In this document: positions 5,234 through 36,170 of the stretch, one piece after another
How positions within the stretch are numbered: position 1 is the first letter of the stretch
How the letters are laid out: every line of letters begins with the position of its first letter
DNA from: Escherichia coli
GTDB taxonomy: Bacteria > Pseudomonadota > Gammaproteobacteria > Enterobacterales > Enterobacteriaceae
NCBI RefSeq assembly: GCF_001677475.2
Contig: NZ_CP015229.1
Length of the DNA stretch: 64,000 bases
Strand: one strand, 5' to 3'
The notes under the pieces: generated by a model
Database searches by the model: none
What the model was told of the DNA's origin: nothing
What the model saw: the letters and a program-made list of their open reading frames with translations, nothing else
Made by a program: the position numbers and the translations under genes

Positions 5234-5882
5234 GGACGAAACGCCGCTGGCAGAGATGCATGCGGAATATATTCGTCACATTCCCGGATTCAGTCAGATA
5301 TTACTGGCGGGAAACCTGGCGCAGGCCCGAATGATGATCGAGCGTTTTAAGCCGGGGCTAATCTTGCTCGATAACTATCTTCCTGACGGTAGAGGGATTA
5401 ATTTACTGCATGAACTGGTGCAGGCGCATTTTCCCGGCGACGTGGTGTTTACCACTGCAGCCAGCGATATGGAAACGGTGTCTGAAGCCGTACGTTGTGG
5501 TGTATTTGATTATCTCATTAAGCCCATTGCCTATGAGCGGCTGGGGCAAACGCTAACCCGTTTCCGCCAGCGTAAACATATGCTGGAAAGTATTGATAGC
5601 GCCAGCCAGAAGCAAATTGATGAGATGTTTAATGCCTATGCTCGCGGTGAACCTAAAGACGAACTGCCGACCGGCATTGACCCCTTGACGCTAAACGCGG
5701 TGCGAAAACTGTTTAAAGAGCCTGGTGTGCAACATACGGCAGAAACGGTGGCGCAGGCACTGACCATCAGCCGCACCACTGCCAGGCGTTATCTTGAATA
5801 TTGCGCCAGCCGCCATCTGATTATTGCTGAAATTGTTCACGGCAAAGTTGGCAGACCGCAACGCATATACCACAGTGGGTGA
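5202..5882 (+). CDS. dpiA: response regulator DpiA (CitB)
   Basis: 226-aa ORF MTAPLTLLIVEDETPLAEMHAEYI... with receiver-domain motifs; overlaps the dpiB 3' end by 32 nt. Confidence 0.9.
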   Translation: MTAPLTLLIVEDETPLAEMHAEYIRHIPGFSQILLAGNLAQARMMIERFKPGLILLDNYLPDGRGINLLHELVQAHFPGDVVFTTAASDMETVSEAVRCGVFDYLIKPIAYERLGQTLTRFRQRKHMLESIDSASQKQIDEMFNAYARGEPKDELPTGIDPLTLNAVRKLFKEPGVQHTAETVAQALTISRTTARRYLEYCASRHLIIAEIVHGKVGRPQRIYHSG

Positions 5883-5922
5883 CATGAAAAAGCCGGAGGA
5901 AACTTGCCTCCGGCATGACTAT

Positions 5923-7308
5923 TTACTTGCCTGTGACCACTGCTGCCGTTCCTGGCACCATCAGCTCTGTAGCAACGATAACAATCACTAGCCCAACAAG
6001 CACCGGCACCGAGGTGCGTTTTACGACTTCAAATGGTGAGATTTTCGCCATCCCGGCAACCGCAACGACTACGCCAGAAACGGGTGATAGGGTACGACCC
6101 AGGTTTGACGCCTGCAGCATCGGGATAGTCAAATACGCCGGGTTAATGCCGGAAGAGTGCGCCAGTTTCGGGATCATCTCAACAAACGCATAAAACGGCG
6201 CATTGCCTGAACCGGTCGTGACTGCCGCCAGCATTGTCAGAATCACCAATACCAGCATCAGGATGATACTCGCCGAACCAAACGAGGTAGCAATAGAAAT
6301 CAGACTTTGAATAAAGCCGATGGTGCTAAGCCCCTGAGCGAATACCCCAGCGGCAACCAGCAGCATCACCACGTTAGCAAACGCATCTGCCATCCCGCGA
6401 TAAGCCACTTCCAGACCAGAGAAAACTTTCTGGGTATTAAAGCTGCGGATGAACTCCAGAATGGAGGCAATCAGCATACAAATCACCAGAATAGTGATGA
6501 TGTGTAATTGCGGACCCCATTTGCCGTCAAAAATCAGTACACCGATGATAGGCGTGAACGGCAAAATGGCATAAAACGCAGGAGCAGTGGTGGTGATTTC
6601 ACTGACATCTAACATTTCATGAGAGATGTGCTCTTTTTTATCCAGATAACGTTGCCAGAAGAAGTGGGCGATCGCCATGCCGATAATTGCAGCAATTGAG
6701 ATAGGCAGCGTCGTTTTGAAGGCGAAGTCAATCAGCGACATTTCGGAAGCCTGCGCCGCCAGCACCACATCCCCTGAAGTCGGTGCGAGAATAATCGCCG
6801 CCGGGGAGGCACAAATGGCAGCTGCTGCGCCACGACTGATACCAACGTTTACCATCACCGGAAACAGGGTTGCCATCAGCAAAACACCCAGACCGGTCGC
6901 GGAAGAGACGGCCAGAGACATCAGACAGGCGACAAAATAGGCGGCAATCATCAGCAGGTAAGGGGAGTTAATATACTGCAATGGTTTTGACGCCAGCTTG
7001 ACCACCATATCATTCGCGCCGATATGGGTCATGTAAGCGGCAAAGCCACACAGCATCATAATCATCATGCCGAGGTCGCCGCCGCGGCTCATTAGCAATA
7101 TTTTAACGTATTCAACGATATCCGTGGCGCTGTAGCCTGTTGAAGCCTGGCTGGACGGTAACACTTTGTGCCCCATAATGGCACTGATAATCAGCAATAA
7201 CAGGCCACCGACAAATAACACGCCAGTGGCGGAATACCCTTTAATGATGTAGCGAGCTACACCCACAATAACCACAACCCCAATAAGGAGTTCAATGAAT
7301 GTCAGCAT
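5923..7308 (-). CDS. dcuC: anaerobic C4-dicarboxylate transporter
   Basis: 461-aa polytopic membrane ORF MLTFIELLIGVVVIVGVARYIIKG..., uninterrupted. Confidence 0.9.
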   Translation of the reverse strand: MLTFIELLIGVVVIVGVARYIIKGYSATGVLFVGGLLLLIISAIMGHKVLPSSQASTGYSATDIVEYVKILLMSRGGDLGMMIMMLCGFAAYMTHIGANDMVVKLASKPLQYINSPYLLMIAAYFVACLMSLAVSSATGLGVLLMATLFPVMVNVGISRGAAAAICASPAAIILAPTSGDVVLAAQASEMSLIDFAFKTTLPISIAAIIGMAIAHFFWQRYLDKKEHISHEMLDVSEITTTAPAFYAILPFTPIIGVLIFDGKWGPQLHIITILVICMLIASILEFIRSFNTQKVFSGLEVAYRGMADAFANVVMLLVAAGVFAQGLSTIGFIQSLISIATSFGSASIILMLVLVILTMLAAVTTGSGNAPFYAFVEMIPKLAHSSGINPAYLTIPMLQASNLGRTLSPVSGVVVAVAGMAKISPFEVVKRTSVPVLVGLVIVIVATELMVPGTAAVVTGK

Positions 7309-26911: not shown

Positions 26912-27895
26912 CTACAGTAAATCTTCAATCTCACGAATTTCTTGACTGACATCTCTGGTTCCGGATGACTGAACTTTACGATACAGGTCGAGAGCCTGTC
27001 GGAGATCGACAGGTCTTCCTTCTCCGTAGTGATACATAATGGCCAGGTTATACCAGGCAGTGGCGTCATTGCATTCAGCGGCTTTCGTAAACCATTCAAA
27101 GGCGGCCTGATAATCTTTCTCAACGCCTTGTCCGTGTTTATACATATAACCGATGTTGACGTAAGCGCCGACGCTCCCCTGAGCGGCAGCCTTCAGATAC
27201 CAGTACATCGCTTGCTTATAGTCCTGGTCCACCCCTTCGCCAGCGTTATAATCCCATGCAATTTGAAACTGAGCATGCCGATTACCCTGCTGTGCGCTTT
27301 TCAAATACCAGAATGCGGCGAGTGTCTCGTTTTGAGCGACGCCTTTTCCGTCTTCATAAAGATCGGCCAGATTGTTTTGCGCGTCACTATGGCCTTGTAA
27401 TGCAGCTTGTTTGTACCAGAAAAATGCCAGCGTATAGTCTTGTGCGACTCCGTTGCCATTTCTGTACATCCACCCAAGATTATTTTGCGCATAAGACATT
27501 CCGCTCTCCGCGGCTATCTGATACCAGGCAACCGCTTCTTTATAGTTGGGGTCTTCTCCACGATCCAGTATCCAGCCAAGGGCGTTGGAAGCGAAAGTAT
27601 GGCCTTGTAGGGCAGCTTTTTTCAGCCAAAAGATGGCTTGCTCATTATCTTTATGACGGCTTTTATCCTCGGAGTATTTCCGCCCTAAGGAATATTGTGC
27701 TTCACAATGGCTTTGCTCAGCGGCCAGCTTCAGCCAGTAAAAGGCCTTTTCGTCGTCCGGAGAGTCAATTGCGCTATCGCGATTATAATAAAACCCAATA
27801 ATATATTGAGCCTCGCAATCGCCTTTTTCAGCACGTTCGATAATCTCATCTATTGATAAATTATCGCAGCAACTTGACGTAAAAATCATTATCAT
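26912..27895 (-). CDS. ybeQ: Sel1-repeat (TPR-like) protein YbeQ
   Basis: 327-aa ORF with repeated A-x-A-Q-x-x-L-G-x-x-Y-x-x-G-x-G-V units; paralogue of ybeT; start could be 6 nt further in. Confidence 0.85.
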   Translation of the reverse strand: MIMIFTSSCCDNLSIDEIIERAEKGDCEAQYIIGFYYNRDSAIDSPDDEKAFYWLKLAAEQSHCEAQYSLGRKYSEDKSRHKDNEQAIFWLKKAALQGHTFASNALGWILDRGEDPNYKEAVAWYQIAAESGMSYAQNNLGWMYRNGNGVAQDYTLAFFWYKQAALQGHSDAQNNLADLYEDGKGVAQNETLAAFWYLKSAQQGNRHAQFQIAWDYNAGEGVDQDYKQAMYWYLKAAAQGSVGAYVNIGYMYKHGQGVEKDYQAAFEWFTKAAECNDATAWYNLAIMYHYGEGRPVDLRQALDLYRKVQSSGTRDVSQEIREIEDLL

Positions 27896-28052
27896 TTCCT
27901 TATGGTTGTAGATAAAACATATTATATTTTTATGTGTTCCATTTTTGCGTAAACCTTATTTTATGCGTATTATGTTGCGTCAGAAAAGTATAAATAAATG
28001 AGCCTCGCAACGTGGTTAATATTCATTGAATGAATATTTAAGGATAAATTAT

Positions 28053-28759
28053 ATGGACATGGAGTCGCAAAAAATATTGTTTGCACTTTCCACTCCGATG
28101 GAAATACGCAATAAATGCTGTTTACCTTCGCATTCATCCCCCAAAATGTATTTAGGTACATGCTTTTTGACCTTTCTTCCTCATGGGGAATTGATGGCCG
28201 TGATGACCTGCTGCGCACAATTCACCGAATGATCGATAACGGTCATGCCGCGCGGTTGGCAGGGCTTTATCACCGCTGGTTTCGTTATTCTCCGTGTGAA
28301 TGGCGTGACTATCTTGCTGAACTAAATGAGCAAGGTCAGGCTTATGCGCAATTTGTCGCCAGCACCGCCGAATGCTGTGGCGAAGGGGGAATCAAAGCCT
28401 GGGATTATGTCCGGATGGGTTTTTTAAGCCGAATGGGCGTACTTAATAACTGGTTGAGCGAAGAAGAAAGTCTATGGATCCAGTCGCGCATTCATCTACG
28501 GGCGCTACGTTATTATAGTAACTGGCAGCAATACTTTGCCGGTTATACCTTTGGTCGGCAATATTGGCAGTCTCCCGAAGATGATAATCTTCAGTTATTA
28601 CGTGAATTCTTAGCGCGTAAAGAATACGACGATTCCGGCAATGATATGTTTTATCAATTATTTGCCAGTGATGATGCGTATTACCCTACCTTGTCCTGGC
28701 AACCATTGGCTTACTATTCTGCATGCCCGGAAACGCTTAAGGATATGAGCGACCTATGA
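28053..28759 (+). pseudogene. ybeR: DUF1266 protein YbeR, disrupted by a -1 frameshift in a T5 tract (28164..28168)
   Basis: Track ORFs 28026..28232 (frame 3) and 28115..28759 (frame 2) together align colinearly with intact paralogue YbeU; a T6 tract would restore one ~235-aa frame. Could be a sequencing error. Confidence 0.7.
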
Positions 28760-30183
28760 AAAATTGCTGGCAGATCCTCGATATATCTCAAACGACTGAC
28801 GTCGATATTATCCGCCGCGCTTATCTGGCGCTGTTACCGTCCTTTCATCCAGAAACCGATCCGCAGGGTTTTAAACAACTTCGTCAGGCGTATGAGGATG
28901 CGCTACGGATTGCGCAGTCGCCTGCTAAATCTGTTTGGCAACCAGAAGAATATGAGGTAGCAGAACATGAAATTCTGCTCGCCTTTCGCGCGTTACTTGC
29001 CTCTGATAGCGAACGTTTTCTGCCCTCCGCCTGGCAGCGATTCATTCAGCAATTAAATTATTGCTCGATGGAAGAGATTGATGAATTACGCTGGTCGCTG
29101 TGCACAATCGCCATGAACACTGCCCATTTATCCTTCGAGTGCGTGGTGTTATTAGCAGAAAGATTGCGGTGGTTGCAGGAGGAAAACGTCGGGGAAATAG
29201 ACGAAGAAGAACTGGAATCCTTTTTATATGCCATTGCGAAGGGGAATGTTTTTAACTTCCAGACCATTCTGCATCTGCACGTTGCCGTGCAAAATGACAC
29301 TATCGATTTTTACCAAATGTTCGCTCGGATTTGGTTATCGCATCCAGAATGGCTGACATTGTATTTAGCGCAACATCGCGCAGTGATTATCCCCGATGAT
29401 GCAAAACTGCACAGAAATTTACTCCGCTGGTATAGCGCAGGTCGCCTGGGAATCCCCGAACTCCTGGATTACGCCCGGTCGTGGCGGGAAGCTGAACCTG
29501 ATAATGAAGATGCGCGTTATTATGAATACGCACAACGCGTCTATTGTGGAGAAGGCGAAAGCTTGCTGGCAGAACTTTGTGACTACTGGCGCGAGTATCC
29601 CTCCACCCAGGCGGATGCTTTAATGTTGCAATGGTGCCGTCAGCATCGGGTCGATTATTACCCGTTAGTGGTGATGATGATTGAAGCTCGTGAACTGGTT
29701 AACGATCAGGGAAAACCGCTACTTTATATCCCCGGCGACAGCGCCCGTACGCGTTTTCATTTATACGAAATACTCAGCGATGAAAAACTCTCTGCTCTGG
29801 GGCGTTCACTGGTCGAGATGGTTTTGCACAAAGGACGTAAGCCGCGAATCTCACTCACGCGTGATACAGAACATCCCTTATGGCCATTATATTTAGTTGC
29901 TAAACAATTAGTTCAGGCCAGCCAACCGACAGAAGAATCATTAATGCCGATTGTGAGCCGCCTTGATGCAGAAGCTCGTTGTCCACTGGAAGCATTAATG
30001 ATTCGTCGATTATTAATTCAGGCGGCAAATTTTACCGAGAAGCAAACCGTCGAACCGGAGCCGCAACCGCAGCCAATGCCCGTTGACGATGGTGGGCCGG
30101 GCTGTCTGGGCGTCATCAAAATTATTTTCTACATTTTTATCTTTGCCGGTTTGATAGGGAAAATACTCCATCTGTTCGGGTGA
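28756..30183 (+). CDS. djlB: J-domain co-chaperone DjlB (YbeS) with C-terminal transmembrane anchor
   Basis: 475-aa ORF; N-terminal J-like domain with HPE in place of HPD (28846..28854); hydrophobic C-tail [20 protein letters not shown]; ATGA overlap with ybeR. Confidence 0.85.
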
Positions 30184-30192
30184 CAGTCGACG

Positions 30193-30747
30193 TTAATGTG
30201 CGGGAAGCCCGGCAAGTAATCTTTCCGCATTTTTGTAATGTTGTTTGGCGGCCAGTTTTAACCATTTTTGAGATTCATAATGGTTAACATTAATACCTGA
30301 GCCATTTCTGTAGATCAAACCCAAAGTATATTGAGCATGAGCATACCCTTGTTCAGCTGCTTCCTTATACCAGAGAATTGCTTTACGGGTATCGGGTTTG
30401 ACCCCCAGACCTTTGAGGTAGATCCACCCCAGTTTACTTTGCGCGCGTGGATTTTCCTGTTCCGCTGATTGCTCATACCAGTATCTCGCCTGTGTATAAT
30501 CCAGTGGTTTACCGTCGCTACCATGAAGATAAAATTCTCCAAGTCGATATTGCGACGTTGAGTGACCATGAATCGCGGAAAGCTCTGTGGCTGCCGTGGT
30601 GAATGGAAGACTGCCCGGTGAGCTTAAATAATCAAAGGCATAATTCGCCATGGCTTTATCACGCAACGTCGTTTTCTTGGGTTGGCTAATACAGGTTATT
30701 GCTGCAACTATAAATATTGCGAATATATACATTAATTTTTTATTCAT
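30193..30747 (-). CDS. ybeT: Sel1-repeat protein YbeT with N-terminal signal/anchor
   Basis: 184-aa [28 protein letters not shown]... followed by Sel1-like repeats. Confidence 0.85.
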
Positions 30748-30848
30748 GTGTGAATACTTCGATTTTCTTTTTATTTTGAAAGCGTCAAGTTTATACTCAT
30801 CAATAATAAAAAAGTAGTCAGTTAATGCACTTAAGGGATTATTAACAA

Positions 30849-31556
30849 ATGAACAAGGAAGAACAATATCTTCTTTTTGCGCTTTCTGCGCCCATGGAAA
30901 TACTTAATCAGGGTTGCAAACCCGCGCATGACTCGCCAAAAATGTATACCGGGATAAAAGAATTCGATCTCTCATCATCCTGGGGAATAAATAATCGTGA
31001 TGATTTAATTCACACTATTTATCAGATGACCGATGATGGTCATGCTAATGATTTAGCTGGCTTATATCTGACATGGCATCGCTCTTCCCCTGAAGAGTGG
31101 AAAGCATTAATTGCTGGCGGCTCGGAGAGAGGGTTGATTTATACCCAATTCGTTGCCCAAACCGCTATGTGTTGTGGGGAAGGGGGAATCAAAGCCTGGG
31201 ATTATGTGCGGATGGGTTTTTTATCACGGGTTGGTGTGCTCAACAAGTGGCTGACGGAAGACGAGAGTTTATGGCTGCAATCGCGCGTCTATATACGAGC
31301 ACACCATTACTATCACAGCTGGATGCACTATTTTTCCGCCTATTCGTTAGGGCGTCTCTACTGGCAATCTTCTCAGTGCGAAGACAACGCTTCGCTACGC
31401 GAGGCGCTAACCCTGTACAAATACGATAGCGCCGGGAGTCGGATGTTCGAAGAGCTGGCAGCGGGAAGCGATCGTTTCTATGCCACGCTTCCCTGGCAGC
31501 CATTAACTGTCCAGCCTGAATGCCCGGTAACGCTTAAGGATGTGAGCGGCCTATGA
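30849..31556 (+). CDS. ybeU: DUF1266 protein YbeU
   Basis: 235-aa [36 protein letters not shown]...; paralogue of ybeR. Confidence 0.85.
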
Positions 31557-33004
31557 AAACATGTTGGCAAATCCTCGAAATTGAAAGCACGACGCAAATA
31601 GACATTATCCGCCAGGCTTATCTTGCTCGCTTACCGTTGTGTCATCCCGAAACCGATCCGCAGGGGTTTAAAGCATTACGCCAGGCCTATGAAGAGGCGC
31701 TGCGACTGGCGGTAAATCCTGTCGAGGAAGCAGATAATGAAGAAAAAGATGCCACCGCTGAACATGAAATACTACGAGCATTCAGGACATTACTGGATTC
31801 AGAAAGTGATCGTTTTCAGCCCTCCGCCTGGCAGAAATTTATTCAGCAATTAAATACCTGGAACATGGAGGATGTCGATCAATTACGCTGGCCGCTGTGT
31901 GCAATCGCTATAGAAGCGCGATATCTTTCATTAAATTGTGCTTCTTTGCTGGCAGAGCGTTTGAACTGGCATTCGTTTAATGACAGCGAAGGAATGGATG
32001 AGGAAGAAAGGGAGGCTTTTCTTGAGGCCATTCAGGCTGGTGATTGTTTCGATTTCCTTAGCCTTCTGGAATATCCCGTCGCGTTGCAGAACCAGACTGT
32101 TGAGTATTACTTCGCGCTGGAACGCTGCTGCCGTTACCATCCCGACTATGTCACTGCGTTTATGGCAATGGAAGGTCCGTGGTTCATTCCTGATGATGTC
32201 AAGTTACATCGCAAACTGTTGCGCTGGTACAGCTCGGTGAAAACAGGTATGGCGGAACTCATTCCTGTTGCCCAACAGTGGCAAGCAGAAGAACCAGAAA
32301 GCGAAGATGCCCGTTATTACCAGTGTGCGCAACGGTTGTACTGTGGCGAGGGGGAAAGCCTGCTTGCCGATCTCTGCGCATACCGGGAGAGTTACCCATC
32401 TACACAAGCCGATAATTTGTTGTTGCAGTGGAGCAAGCGTCATTGCCCGGATTATTTCGCGCTGTTAGTGATGGTTATCGAAGCGCAGAGCATGGTTGAT
32501 GCGCAAGGTCAACCGTTGAAATATGTTCCTGGTGAGAGCGCCCGGACGCGGCTGTTATGGGCGGAAATTTTACATAGCGGAAAATTATCGCCGTTAGGTC
32601 AATCGTTTATTGAGTCGTTATTCTTCAAGCGCAAAGCATGGGCGTGGTGGAAATCGAGAGTCGGTAGCGAGACAGAACAAGATTCACCGTTACTGGATTT
32701 GTATCGGGTAGCGGAACAGGTTGTGCTGGAAGCGTTCCCGAAACAAGAGATGCTGGCCCGTCTTAATACAAGGCTGGAAGGTGGAGATGCTCATCCATTA
32801 GAGGCCATTATCACCCGGATGCTGTTGACGAAAGTGAAACTCGAGCCGGAGGATGAAGATGTCGATGAGACAACACCTGAAAACCACGAAGAAATAAATG
32901 ATGAGGATGAAAAACCACAGAGCATTACCAGCATTATCAAAATCAGCTTAACGGTGCTGGTGATAGGTTATGCTCTCGGAAAAATCGCGATGTTGTTTAG
33001 CTGA
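31553..33004 (+). CDS. djlC: J-domain co-chaperone DjlC (YbeV) with C-terminal transmembrane anchor
   Basis: 483-aa ORF paralogous to DjlB; HPE at 31643..31651; acidic region then hydrophobic tail [18 protein letters not shown]; ATGA overlap with ybeU. Confidence 0.85.
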
Positions 33005-33019: not shown

Positions 33020-33043
33020 GCCGATGCCGGATGCAGCGTTTAT
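33020..33043. repeat. left half of a REP-like palindromic unit split by the IS insertion
   Basis: gccgatgccggatgcagcgtttat; its inverted partner gccgcatccggcagccg lies at 34480..34496 on the far side of the IS. Confidence 0.6.
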
Positions 33044-33566
33044 TGAACTGCACCCCAAATGTTGGACATAATCTGACATCTGAAGGTGCAGTTTATGAAA
33101 CATTCATTTGAAGTAAAACTTGCCGCTGTAAATCATTACCTGGCTGGTCATGCAGGCATCATTTCTACGGCAAAACTCTTTCAACTTTCTCACACCAGCC
33201 TCTCACACTGGATTAATCTTTTTCTTCTTCACGGTCCTCGGGCACTGGATTGCAGACACAAGCGTAGCTATTCTCCTGAAGATAAACTTTGCGTGGTTCT
33301 TTATGCTCTCGGGCATTCTGAGTCTCTACCCCGGGTAGCTGCCCGGTTTAACATTCCCAGCCACAACACGGTTAAAAACTGGATAAAAGGCTACCGCAAA
33401 TCTGGTAATGAGGCCTTTATCAGGCGCAGGAAGGAGAAAAGCATGACCCGTTCTGATGATACCCATGAAAACGAGGCAAACATGACGCCGGAAGAGATGA
33501 AGAATGAGCTGCGTTATCTTCGCGCAGAAAATGCATATCTGAAAGCCATGCAGGAGCATCTCCTGG

Positions 33567-34477
<911 letters not shown>

Positions 34478-34499
34478 ATGCCGCATCCGGCAGCCGTGT

Positions 34500-36170
34500 T
34501 TAAGGGATCTCAATAGCCAAATAATCGCTCGCCCGTCGCCGAACTTCATCGACGCGGGCCATATCGTTTGACTGCAACGCCGCATCAAAATCGGTGATCA
34601 CCCGGCCGATCTCTTCTCGCTCGTCACCCAGCGCCCGCGCCCACAACTCTTCCAGTTTTGCTTTAAAGGTACGGTTGATGAGCATATCGCGCGGATAAAT
34701 TTTCAATGCGGATAACCGCGTCCGACTCTCTTCAATCTGCTGTGCGCTCAATGTTACAGGACTGTGATTAATGACTCTGGACTTAACGCTGCCGTCTTCC
34801 AGAAGCACGTCAACTTCAAGCAACCCGTTGATATCATAACTAAAGCGAATATCAATCGACTGATAAGCCCCGGTTTTCTTCAACGGCACATCGAAGGATT
34901 CCACCAGAATGTTATTTTTAACTTTGTGGTTTTCTCCCTGATAGACGTTAACCGTAATTGAATCCTGTTCCGGGTGCATGGTCGAGTAAGTTTCTACACG
35001 CGACACCGGTACAGTGGTGTTTCGTTCAATAATCGGCGAGAAAATGCCGGAAACGCCCTGGCGGTTAACTTCAACACCCAACGAGTAAGGGCAAATATCA
35101 GTGAGGATCACCTCTTCAATATCTTCACTGCGTAAGCGGCAGGCGGCCTGGATTGCTGCGCCCAGCGCGACAATGGTGCTCGGGTCGTAACTTTGATATG
35201 GTAATTTGCCAAACAGACGTACGGCGATTCGCTGCACCAGCGGCATTTGTGATGCGCCGCCAACCAGCACCAGACTGTCGATTTGACTTGGCTTCAGACG
35301 TGCATCGCGCAACGCCTGTTCAATCGGTACTCGCAAGCGATTGAGCAGCGGCAACCACAAATCTTCCAGTTCGTTTTCGTAAAATTCGCACTTACGCGTT
35401 TCTTCCTGATACTGCCAGCTAATTTGCAGCGGTAATTGATTGCCGCATTTTGCCGCTTCCACGCTGGTGTACAGGGCTGCCAGCTCACTTTCGTTGAGCA
35501 TGTTTTTAGCCACTGCGGCGCGTTTTAAAACTTCATCCACCAGCATATGAGTAAAATCTTCGCCGCCAAGAAAGTTGTCGCCAGCGGAGGCGTGAACTTC
35601 AATCACCGGCGTGGCGTATTCGAGCACCGTGACGTCAAACGTGCCGCCACCGAGATCAAAAACCAGCGAGCGGGTATTTTGTTGCGTATGCAGGCCATAT
35701 GCCATCGCAGCTGCTGTGGGTTCATTAATTAAGCGTACCGCATTTAACCCGGCTAACTCCGCTGCTAAACGGGTATGCTTGCGTTGTTCATCGCTGAAAT
35801 AAGCCGGAACGGAGATCACCACATCTTTAATCGGACGTTGCAGAAATTCTTCGGCATCTTCTTTTAATGAGCGTAATACCAAAGAGGACAGTTCTGGCGC
35901 GTTAAATGTATCGCTGCCTAACCGCCAGTTGGTATTACTGCCCATTGCACGTTTAAATAACGCTGCCGTTTTATCCGGATGCGAAGTGCGCCGTGATACA
36001 GCCGGTTTTCCGACTAAAATATGATTATTTTCATCCATGCTAATTATGGATGGTGTTAAATATTCACCGAACTTATTTGGAATTAATTGCGCGGCACCGT
36101 CTTTCCAGACGGCAATTAAACTATTGGTAGTACCGAGATCGATACCAATGGCGAGTTCTGCATTATCCAT
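34500..36170 (-). CDS. hscC: specialised Hsp70-family chaperone HscC
   Basis: 556-aa ORF MDNAELAIGIDLGTTNSLIAVWKDG... with Hsp70 ATPase signatures (DLGGGTFD). Confidence 0.9.
   Translation of the reverse strand: MDNAELAIGIDLGTTNSLIAVWKDGAAQLIPNKFGEYLTPSIISMDENNHILVGKPAVSRRTSHPDKTAALFKRAMGSNTNWRLGSDTFNAPELSSLVLRSLKEDAEEFLQRPIKDVVISVPAYFSDEQRKHTRLAAELAGLNAVRLINEPTAAAMAYGLHTQQNTRSLVFDLGGGTFDVTVLEYATPVIEVHASAGDNFLGGEDFTHMLVDEVLKRAAVAKNMLNESELAALYTSVEAAKCGNQLPLQISWQYQEETRKCEFYENELEDLWLPLLNRLRVPIEQALRDARLKPSQIDSLVLVGGASQMPLVQRIAVRLFGKLPYQSYDPSTIVALGAAIQAACRLRSEDIEEVILTDICPYSLGVEVNRQGVSGIFSPIIERNTTVPVSRVETYSTMHPEQDSITVNVYQGENHKVKNNILVESFDVPLKKTGAYQSIDIRFSYDINGLLEVDVLLEDGSVKSRVINHSPVTLSAQQIEESRTRLSALKIYPRDMLINRTFKAKLEELWARALGDEREEIGRVITDFDAALQSNDMARVDEVRRRASDYLAIEIP

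Follow-up and report, generated by a model that had tools for sequence, protein, structure and literature searches.

The closest described systems are the K-12 proteins DjlC and DjlB, which belong to class C of the J-domain co-chaperones and serve the specialised Hsp70 HscC. HscC is the least understood Hsp70 machine of Escherichia coli, and its sole phenotypes are sensitivity to Cd2+ and UV; the Cd2+ sensitivity appears upon loss of hscC or of djlB and djlC together (PMC8215388). Both J-proteins are tail-anchored (PMC8215388), and membrane insertion of DjlC was reported (Peschke 2018, via PMC8215388). According to the same review, K-12 DjlC stimulates the ATPase activity of HscC, an effect that DnaJ, CbpA, and HscB lack (Kluck 2002, as cited there). 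For DjlB, stimulation of HscC is assumed in the review. The J-domain of DnaJ cannot be replaced by that of DjlC (PMC1906734), and mutual exclusivity between DjlC/HscC and the systems of DnaK and HscA has been reported (PMC8215388, PMC1906734, PMC13254874). In a preprint from 2026, DnaK/DnaJ, HscA/HscB, and HscC/DjlC are regarded as three classes that co-evolve. The HscB-HscA pair resembles DjlC-HscC in being a specialised, mutually exclusive J-protein/Hsp70 pair whose genes lie side by side. However, HscB is soluble, delivers IscU, and is grouped with the HPD-motif J-domains in a review figure (PMC8215388), whereas DjlB and DjlC are membrane-anchored and have the tripeptide His-Pro-Glu (HPE).

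The canonical HPD tripeptide makes direct contacts in the structure of DnaK with a J-domain: His33 bonds the backbone of Leu391, Pro34 packs on Pro419, and Asp35 is hydrogen-bonded to Arg167 and Gln378 (PMC8215388). Tomiczek et al. proposed that this Asp pulls Arg167 away from Asp393 in the linker and Asp481 in SBD-beta (PMC7289447). The original prediction took this Asp to be normally essential, in agreement with PMC8215388, where changes of the D35N type abolish ATPase stimulation in every system tested. Replacement of this Asp with Glu is known. Malinverni et al. (2023) counted 2,921 J-domains with HPE (about 1% of all J-domains) and named DjlB and DjlC as examples (PMC10410713). These about 2,900 proteins have the same Asp-to-Glu variation as DjlB and DjlC, which serve in that paper as the examples of prokaryotic HPE proteins without further annotated domains. 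In eukaryotes, HPE proteins are for the most part fusions with Na/Ca-exchanger domains and have no relation to HscC; an NCKX-type eukaryotic J-protein is reported to have HPD in humans but HPE in the majority of other species (PMC10410713). The HPE of DjlB and DjlC is stated explicitly in PMC10410713 (2023) and in PMC13254874 (2026), where it is called "the only replacement tolerated", while PMC10410713 speculates on "additional fine-tuning" by HPE.

The region between 26.9 and 36.2 kb of the window (the whole 64,000-nucleotide stretch of E. coli DNA that was analysed) is the E. coli locus ybeQ-ybeR-djlB-ybeT-ybeU-djlC-hscC. It is collinear with K-12 b0644–b0650 and 97.8–98.7% identical to the corresponding locus of complete E. 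coli genomes. Its features are:

26912..27895, minus strand: ybeQ, Sel1-repeat protein; opens the duplicated Sel1 / DUF1266 / J-protein module
28053..28759, plus strand: ybeR (DUF1266); stop codon and djlB start codon overlap in ATGA; frameshifted
28756..30183, plus strand: djlB (ybeS), ORF of 475 aa; tail-anchored J-protein, 96% identical to K-12 DjlB (b0646)
28756..28920, plus strand: DjlB J-domain; helices I-III, no helix IV (AF2 model, Foldseek, family profile)
28846..28854, plus strand: DjlB His31-Pro32-Glu33, codons CAT CCA GAA; counterpart of HPD
30193..30747, minus strand: ybeT, Sel1-repeat protein; part of the second module copy
30849..31556, plus strand: ybeU (DUF1266); stop codon and djlC start codon overlap in ATGA
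31553..33004, plus strand: djlC (ybeV), ORF of 483 aa; tail-anchored HscC co-chaperone, 97% identical to K-12 DjlC (b0649)
31553..31717, plus strand: DjlC J-domain; Pfam DnaJ at aa 4–47, AF2 helices 4–8, 16–29, and 36–54
31643..31651, plus strand: DjlC His31-Pro32-Glu33, codons CAT CCC GAA
34500..36170, minus strand: hscC, specialised Hsp70 of 556 aa; Pfam HSP70 E = 2.9e-116, annotated as hscC in E. coli genomes
35733..35735, minus strand: HscC Arg146, equivalent of DnaK Arg167 (alignment, codon checked); predicted contact of Glu33
35148..35150, minus strand: HscC Gln341, equivalent of DnaK Gln378 (alignment); second contact of the HPD Asp

In DjlB, the J-domain (aa 1–55) is followed by a middle domain made of helices and by a hydrophobic anchor at the C-terminus. 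The codons at 28846..28854 and 31643..31651 encode His31-Pro32-Glu33 in DjlB and DjlC, respectively, as had been predicted, and the N-terminal peptides quoted with that prediction are exact. The K-12 proteins resemble those of the window in gene order, in HPE at aa 31–33, and in the tail anchor, and both K-12 DjlB and K-12 DjlC have the same HPE as the window proteins. DjlC of the window and of K-12 are identical at 59 of the first 60 residues, with only changes of the N62D type beyond residue 60.

The placement of the tripeptide within a J-domain was examined at the level of sequence profile and fold. When aligned to Pfam DnaJ (PF00226), as proposed with the original prediction, residues 4–47 of both proteins matched profile positions 2–51, although the scores (21.4 and 19.4 bits for DjlB and DjlC) were below the gathering score of 27.8; some DjlB/DjlC homologues have a precomputed PF00226 match. 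[quoted passage not shown] A family profile built from 76 non-redundant N-termini matched solved J-domains with E = 3e-8 to 2e-7, including those of DnaJA1, DnaJ (among them 5NRO_B from the DnaK-J complex), and CbpA, with hPE aligned on HPD. The AF2 model of DjlB residues 1–75 (pLDDT 86–90 over aa 11–50) has helix I at 4–8, helix II at 16–26, and helix III at 36–54, with HPE residues 31–33 in the loop between helices II and III and no ordered structure beyond residue 57, where helix IV is thus absent. A Foldseek search of the PDB with this J-domain model returned almost only J-domains, among them 5nro_B (rmsd 2.1 A over 56 columns, TMt 0.64). The same three J-domain helices are present in the AF2 model of full-length DjlC (pLDDT 85). 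The models have the antiparallel hairpin of helices II and III that characterises the J-domain fold, but not helix IV as such, whereas canonical J-domains have four helices.

In addition to helices I-II-III and the tripeptide in the II-III loop, which are common to DjlB/DjlC, the DnaJ-DnaK complex (5NRO), and the PF00226 J-domains, both proteins retain the AY..FK..AYE signature and the equivalents of Arg22, Lys48, and Lys51. They differ from DnaJ in having Glu instead of Asp, 7 fewer residues after the tripeptide, no helix IV, and Leu and Ala at the positions of Lys26 and Arg27. The family profile and the AF2 fold agree that the N-termini are J-domains with HPE in the HPD position, as originally claimed. 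The tripeptide represents the motif of the J-domain and no accidental HPx, and its invariance in the 40-sequence alignment described below goes far beyond chance. The loop sequence departs from the supposedly invariant His-Pro-Asp in both window proteins and in all 202 relatives described below.

Outside the J-domain, the AF2 model of DjlC is all-helical from 60 to 427, followed by a disordered acidic linker (433–456) and a C-terminal membrane helix (458–482). This transmembrane helix, together with the hydrophobic C-termini of DjlB and DjlC, identifies both as tail-anchored proteins. Homologues at 41–95% identity share the family architecture, with PF27158 (DjlB_C_2nd) after the N-terminal J-domain. 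In a Foldseek search of the PDB with the full-length DjlC model, only weak generic matches to TPR or helical-repeat proteins were found (TM <= 0.25), and NCBIfam holds no model for DjlB or DjlC.

Next, we analysed how far the HPE extends in the family. Among the 120 closest clusters, all 113 N-terminally intact sequences (from Escherichia, Salmonella, Citrobacter, Enterobacter, and Pseudocitrobacter; 41–95% identity) have HPE, and the sole "HPD" is an internal motif of a fragment. An exhaustive phmmer search with DjlB against 1.84 billion representatives gave 2,068 matches, 115 of them at E <= 1e-10. Within the best 150 of these 2,068 matches, the J-domain motif was readable as an H-P-x type in 89, all of which have HPE and none HPD. 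These HPE-bearing matches include proteins of ~890 aa that are only 28–37% identical over aa 3–335. Taken together, HPE is present in 202 of 202 N-terminally intact homologues examined, down to about 22–29% overall identity. The 90% identity clusters represented by HPE sequences comprise 7,634 members for DjlC and 10,348 for DjlB. In a full-length alignment of 40 sequences (22–90% identical to DjlC), His31, Pro32, and Glu33 are invariant columns, and no other part of the protein is as well conserved as the J-domain, with its motif HPE-x-DP-x-GF. Glu33 is encoded by GAA or GAG, depending on the lineage. Since this codon varies synonymously, the constraint acts on the residue, at the level of the protein. 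A change of GAA to GAT or GAC (Asp) requires a single base, yet none was seen in the family. Among the best 150 matches, distant relatives with another first residue were also found, namely NPE in 16 and RPD in one.

The assignment of DjlB and DjlC to HscC, another element of the original prediction, was borne out by the gene neighbourhood. The hscC gene of the window begins a convergent unit 1.5 kb beyond djlC, on its downstream side, and its product is HscC-type in size (about 560 aa) and in its characteristic deletions relative to DnaK. For ten distant family members (four HPE, five NPE, and one RPD), the gene surroundings were looked up; in all ten, a gene for an Hsp70 of 562–569 aa was found, either adjacent (eight loci) or within 4 kb (two loci). 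Seven of these neighbouring Hsp70s were aligned and proved to be 44–59% identical to HscC, compared to 33–37% to DnaK. All seven share the HscC-specific indels, that is, they are without the DnaK 84–111 region and residues 208–211 and have a short lid. HscC and the seven aligned Hsp70s also have two extra residues before the interdomain linker.

We also compared the residues that the Glu would meet on the Hsp70 side. The equivalents of the DnaK contacts Arg167, Gln378, Leu391, and Pro419 are conserved in HscC. In the alignment of HscC with the seven related Hsp70s, Arg167, Asp393, Leu391, and Pro419 are invariant, and Gln378 is Gln in seven of the eight proteins, including HscC itself (Gln341). 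No compensating substitution was found in HscC at the DnaK residues touched by Asp35 (Arg167, Gln378, Asp393, Leu391, and Pro419 are all kept). The docking surface of HscC differs elsewhere: Asp211 is deleted (within 208–211) and Asp477 is replaced with Ser or Thr. On the docking side of DjlB/DjlC, the equivalents of Lys26 and Arg27 are Leu and Ala, while Arg22, Lys48, and Lys51 are kept. Asp481 is replaced with Asn in HscC and the seven related Hsp70s; this was considered as a co-adaptation specific to Glu and rejected, because Asn is the commonest residue at this position in Hsp70s that use HPD partners (PMC7289447).

From these results, HPE is very probably the normal, ancestral, and functional catalytic tripeptide of DjlB and DjlC, tail-anchored co-chaperones of the inner membrane that recruit HscC and switch it on. 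HPE in DjlB/DjlC is a published, family-wide, functional signature and no new oddity. What is added here to the literature is its invariance in 202 sequences, the synonymous Glu codons, the HscC-type neighbours at ten of ten loci, and the unchanged contact residues of HscC. Judged from the alignments, Glu33 most likely works as Asp does, on the same conserved arginine-centred network. [quoted passage not shown] On the J-domain side, this co-divergence may comprise the loop that is 7 residues shorter after HPE and the conserved HPE-x-DP-x-GF; on the HscC side, it may comprise the loss of DnaK 208–211 (including Asp211), Ser/Thr in place of Asp477, and the two extra residues before the linker. 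The best-supported reading of the sequence data is that HPE is maintained by purifying selection in the HscC co-chaperone family. The atypical nature of the J-domain, with single-sequence Pfam scores below the gathering score and helix IV missing, counts against this explanation.

These same two features could indicate that the N-terminus is a degenerate, inactive J-like domain ("type IV" J-protein), or that the real motif lies elsewhere, as DjlC has an internal HPD (aa 196–198, within RYHPDYV at aa 194–200). We consider such explanations extremely improbable. Conservation within the protein is highest in the J-domain, and DjlC was reported to stimulate the HscC ATPase (PMC8215388). The internal HPD is located where helices of the middle domain join (AF2), has no J-domain similarity (Pfam), and is not kept in position, being HPE in DjlB of the window and HPQ in K-12 DjlB. 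It was therefore rejected as the true motif, which also excludes the possibility, raised with the original prediction, that the J-domain motif lies elsewhere. The other possibility raised there, that HPE is ordinary in this subfamily and goes along with normal activity, is essentially what was found: HPE is invariant, and the HPE-bearing DjlC is a reported active co-chaperone. The presence of Glu in both paralogues is thus correct as an observation, but it does not constitute independent evidence, as it is an inherited ancestral state of the family.

The meaning of the Glu itself can be read in two further ways. It could be a neutral, conservative replacement that was fixed once in the ancestor of the family, is interchangeable with Asp, and has no adaptive meaning. 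The carboxylate common to both residues, the unchanged contact residues in HscC, and the description of Glu as the only tolerated replacement (PMC13254874) agree with this, and the HPD/HPE variation by species in the NCKX-type eukaryotic J-protein suggests interchangeability in at least one family (PMC10410713). With about 200 sequences and drift between the synonymous Glu codons, however, reversion to Asp would be expected, and none was seen. The lack of Asp in about 200 diverse sequences suggests that Asp and Glu are not freely interchangeable, and we regard neutrality as unlikely. Alternatively, Glu could be a specificity or insulation device, needed to trigger HscC while blocking DjlB/DjlC on DnaK and HscA and HPD domains on HscC. 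The Glu is strictly invariant across a family whose constant companions are HscC-type Hsp70s, the single-base change from GAA to GAT or GAC never occurs in it, the DjlC/HscC system is reportedly exclusive of DnaK and HscA, and the speculation on fine-tuning (PMC10410713) points the same way. Against such a role, Arg167, Gln378, and the partners of the Arg network are unchanged in HscC, the Asn at Asp481 is the commonest state with HPD partners, and other carriers of specificity exist (K26L and R27A in DjlB helix II, the shortened loop, the HscC 208–211 deletion, and Ser/Thr at Asp477). We consider this role of Glu possible but less likely than not. With unchanged direct contacts and numerous differences elsewhere in the interface, the specificity code is unlikely to reside in Glu alone, and the specificity of DjlC for HscC rather than DnaK more probably comes from the whole co-adapted surface. 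The tuned or partner-specific interaction with HscC proposed in the original prediction is a suggestion already present in the literature (PMC10410713, PMC13254874); for the Glu itself, the sequence neither supports nor refutes it.

The relatives with NPE or RPD in the same position count against the reading of HPE as a functional tripeptide that engages the conserved Arg network. They show a loop open to more variation than the canonical model would permit, and the trigger of HscC may therefore not be identical to that of DnaK. A stronger version, in which the trigger of the HscC branch differs from that of DnaK in that Glu is obligatory and serves as an orthogonality code against DnaJ-type partners, while His is dispensable (NPE and RPD occur beside intact HscC-type genes), seems rather doubtful. 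If it were true, the "invariant HPD" rule would hold for DnaK-like Hsp70s but not for Hsp70s in general. Among large natural families, the HscC co-chaperones are the only one that combines a systematic change of the supposedly invariant HPD with activity. DjlC/HscC is thus a convenient natural test case for the role of Asp in J-domain signalling, which the NPE relatives would extend to His. The impact on annotation is small, as djlB, djlC, and hscC are well-known core genes of E. coli.

Several minor features of the locus were also observed. The Sel1 / DUF1266 / J-protein module is a tandem duplication, and a DUF1266 gene precedes the J-protein gene in two proteobacterial loci, like ybeR and ybeU in E. 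coli. Compared to K-12, the window has only strain-level substitutions in DjlB and DjlC, a frameshifted ybeR, and IS1397 between djlC and hscC. The frameshift in ybeR is due to a run of five T residues at 28164–28168, where K-12 and GF131 have six, and leads to a stop after codon 59. The hscC gene is convergent with djlC, at a distance of 1.5 kb in the window and of 59 bp in K-12, which is without the insertion sequence. IS1397 (IS3 family, about 33043..34479) was inserted in a REP-like palindrome between the two genes. This palindrome is undisrupted in K-12, whereas E. coli GF131 has the same IS1397 insertion.

Of the 150 top-ranking DjlB/C family representatives, 16 carry Asn-Pro-Glu (NPEDDPEGF) at the motif position, so that in these proteins the His of the tripeptide is also replaced (P0229, P0241, P0245, P0248, P0251, P0252, P0255-P0259, P0261-P0263, P0265, and P0266, all from the phmmer search with DjlB). 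In canonical systems, a J-domain that lacks its His is inactive. All five of the NPE loci that were looked up (L006, L011, L014, L015, and L016) encode an Hsp70 of 562-569 aa, either adjacent or at most 4 kb away. The catalytic residues were intact in the two of these Hsp70s that were aligned (L006 and L011). No account of an NPE group in the DjlB/C family was found in the literature. A further relative, P0264 (428 aa), has Arg-Pro-Asp (RPDSDPKGF) at this position. Its gene, at 5639-6925 of locus L013, has an HscC-type Hsp70 gene 3 bp upstream, and the residue equivalent to D481 of DnaK in this Hsp70 is Ser.

The region that follows the J-domain in DjlC was predicted, with high confidence, to form an all-helical, repeat-like domain.

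31730-32833, + strand: DjlC middle domain, aa 60-427 (PF27158, DjlB_C_2nd, in newer Pfam)

Foldseek returned no close solved relative of this domain, only generic TPR-like folds with TM-scores of ≤0.25. In distant relatives, the middle domain is followed by long TPR regions and not by a tail anchor.

Both J-protein genes belong to a unit that is present in two tandem copies within 26912-33004 and consists of a Sel1-repeat gene (- strand), a DUF1266 gene (+ strand), and a J-protein gene (+ strand).

First copy: ybeQ-ybeR-djlB
Second copy: ybeT-ybeU-djlC

The stop codon of the DUF1266 gene overlaps the start codon of the J-protein gene as ATGA in both copies. The same DUF1266-then-J order, with overlapping or abutting genes, was observed at distant loci (L004, 7297-10655; L005, 7306-10688), where the J-proteins are only ~30% identical. 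This recurrence suggests a functional partnership between the DUF1266 proteins and the HscC system.

In the first copy of the unit, the DUF1266 gene reads as frameshifted.

28053-28759, + strand: ybeR (DUF1266), stop overlapping the djlB start codon
28164-28168: T-run within ybeR

The run consists of five T here versus six in K-12 and E. coli GF131. This 1-bp deletion therefore places a stop after codon 59 of the K-12 reading frame, and the frame of the DUF1266 domain is left only as a 214-aa ORF that starts at an internal ATG at 28115. The missing T could be a sequencing error in the homopolymer; alternatively, ybeR could be a pseudogene, or translation could restart. Should the deletion be real, translational coupling to djlB may be affected.

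The convergent djlC and hscC genes are separated by a REP-like palindrome, the loop of which is occupied by an IS3-family element.

33025-33037 and 34480-34492: palindrome arms
~33043-34479: IS3-family element (orfA from 33086, orfB to 34443), named IS1397 in the annotation of E. coli GF131

Palindromic units of the REP-like kind are a reported target of IS1397. In K-12, the palindrome between djlC and hscC is unbroken (TGCCGGATGCAGCGTTTACGCCGCATCCGGCA). In a listing of the 12 E. coli records that best matched a query spanning the insertion, GF131 alone covered the query completely (100%); the other 11 matched in two pieces, with 85% query coverage.
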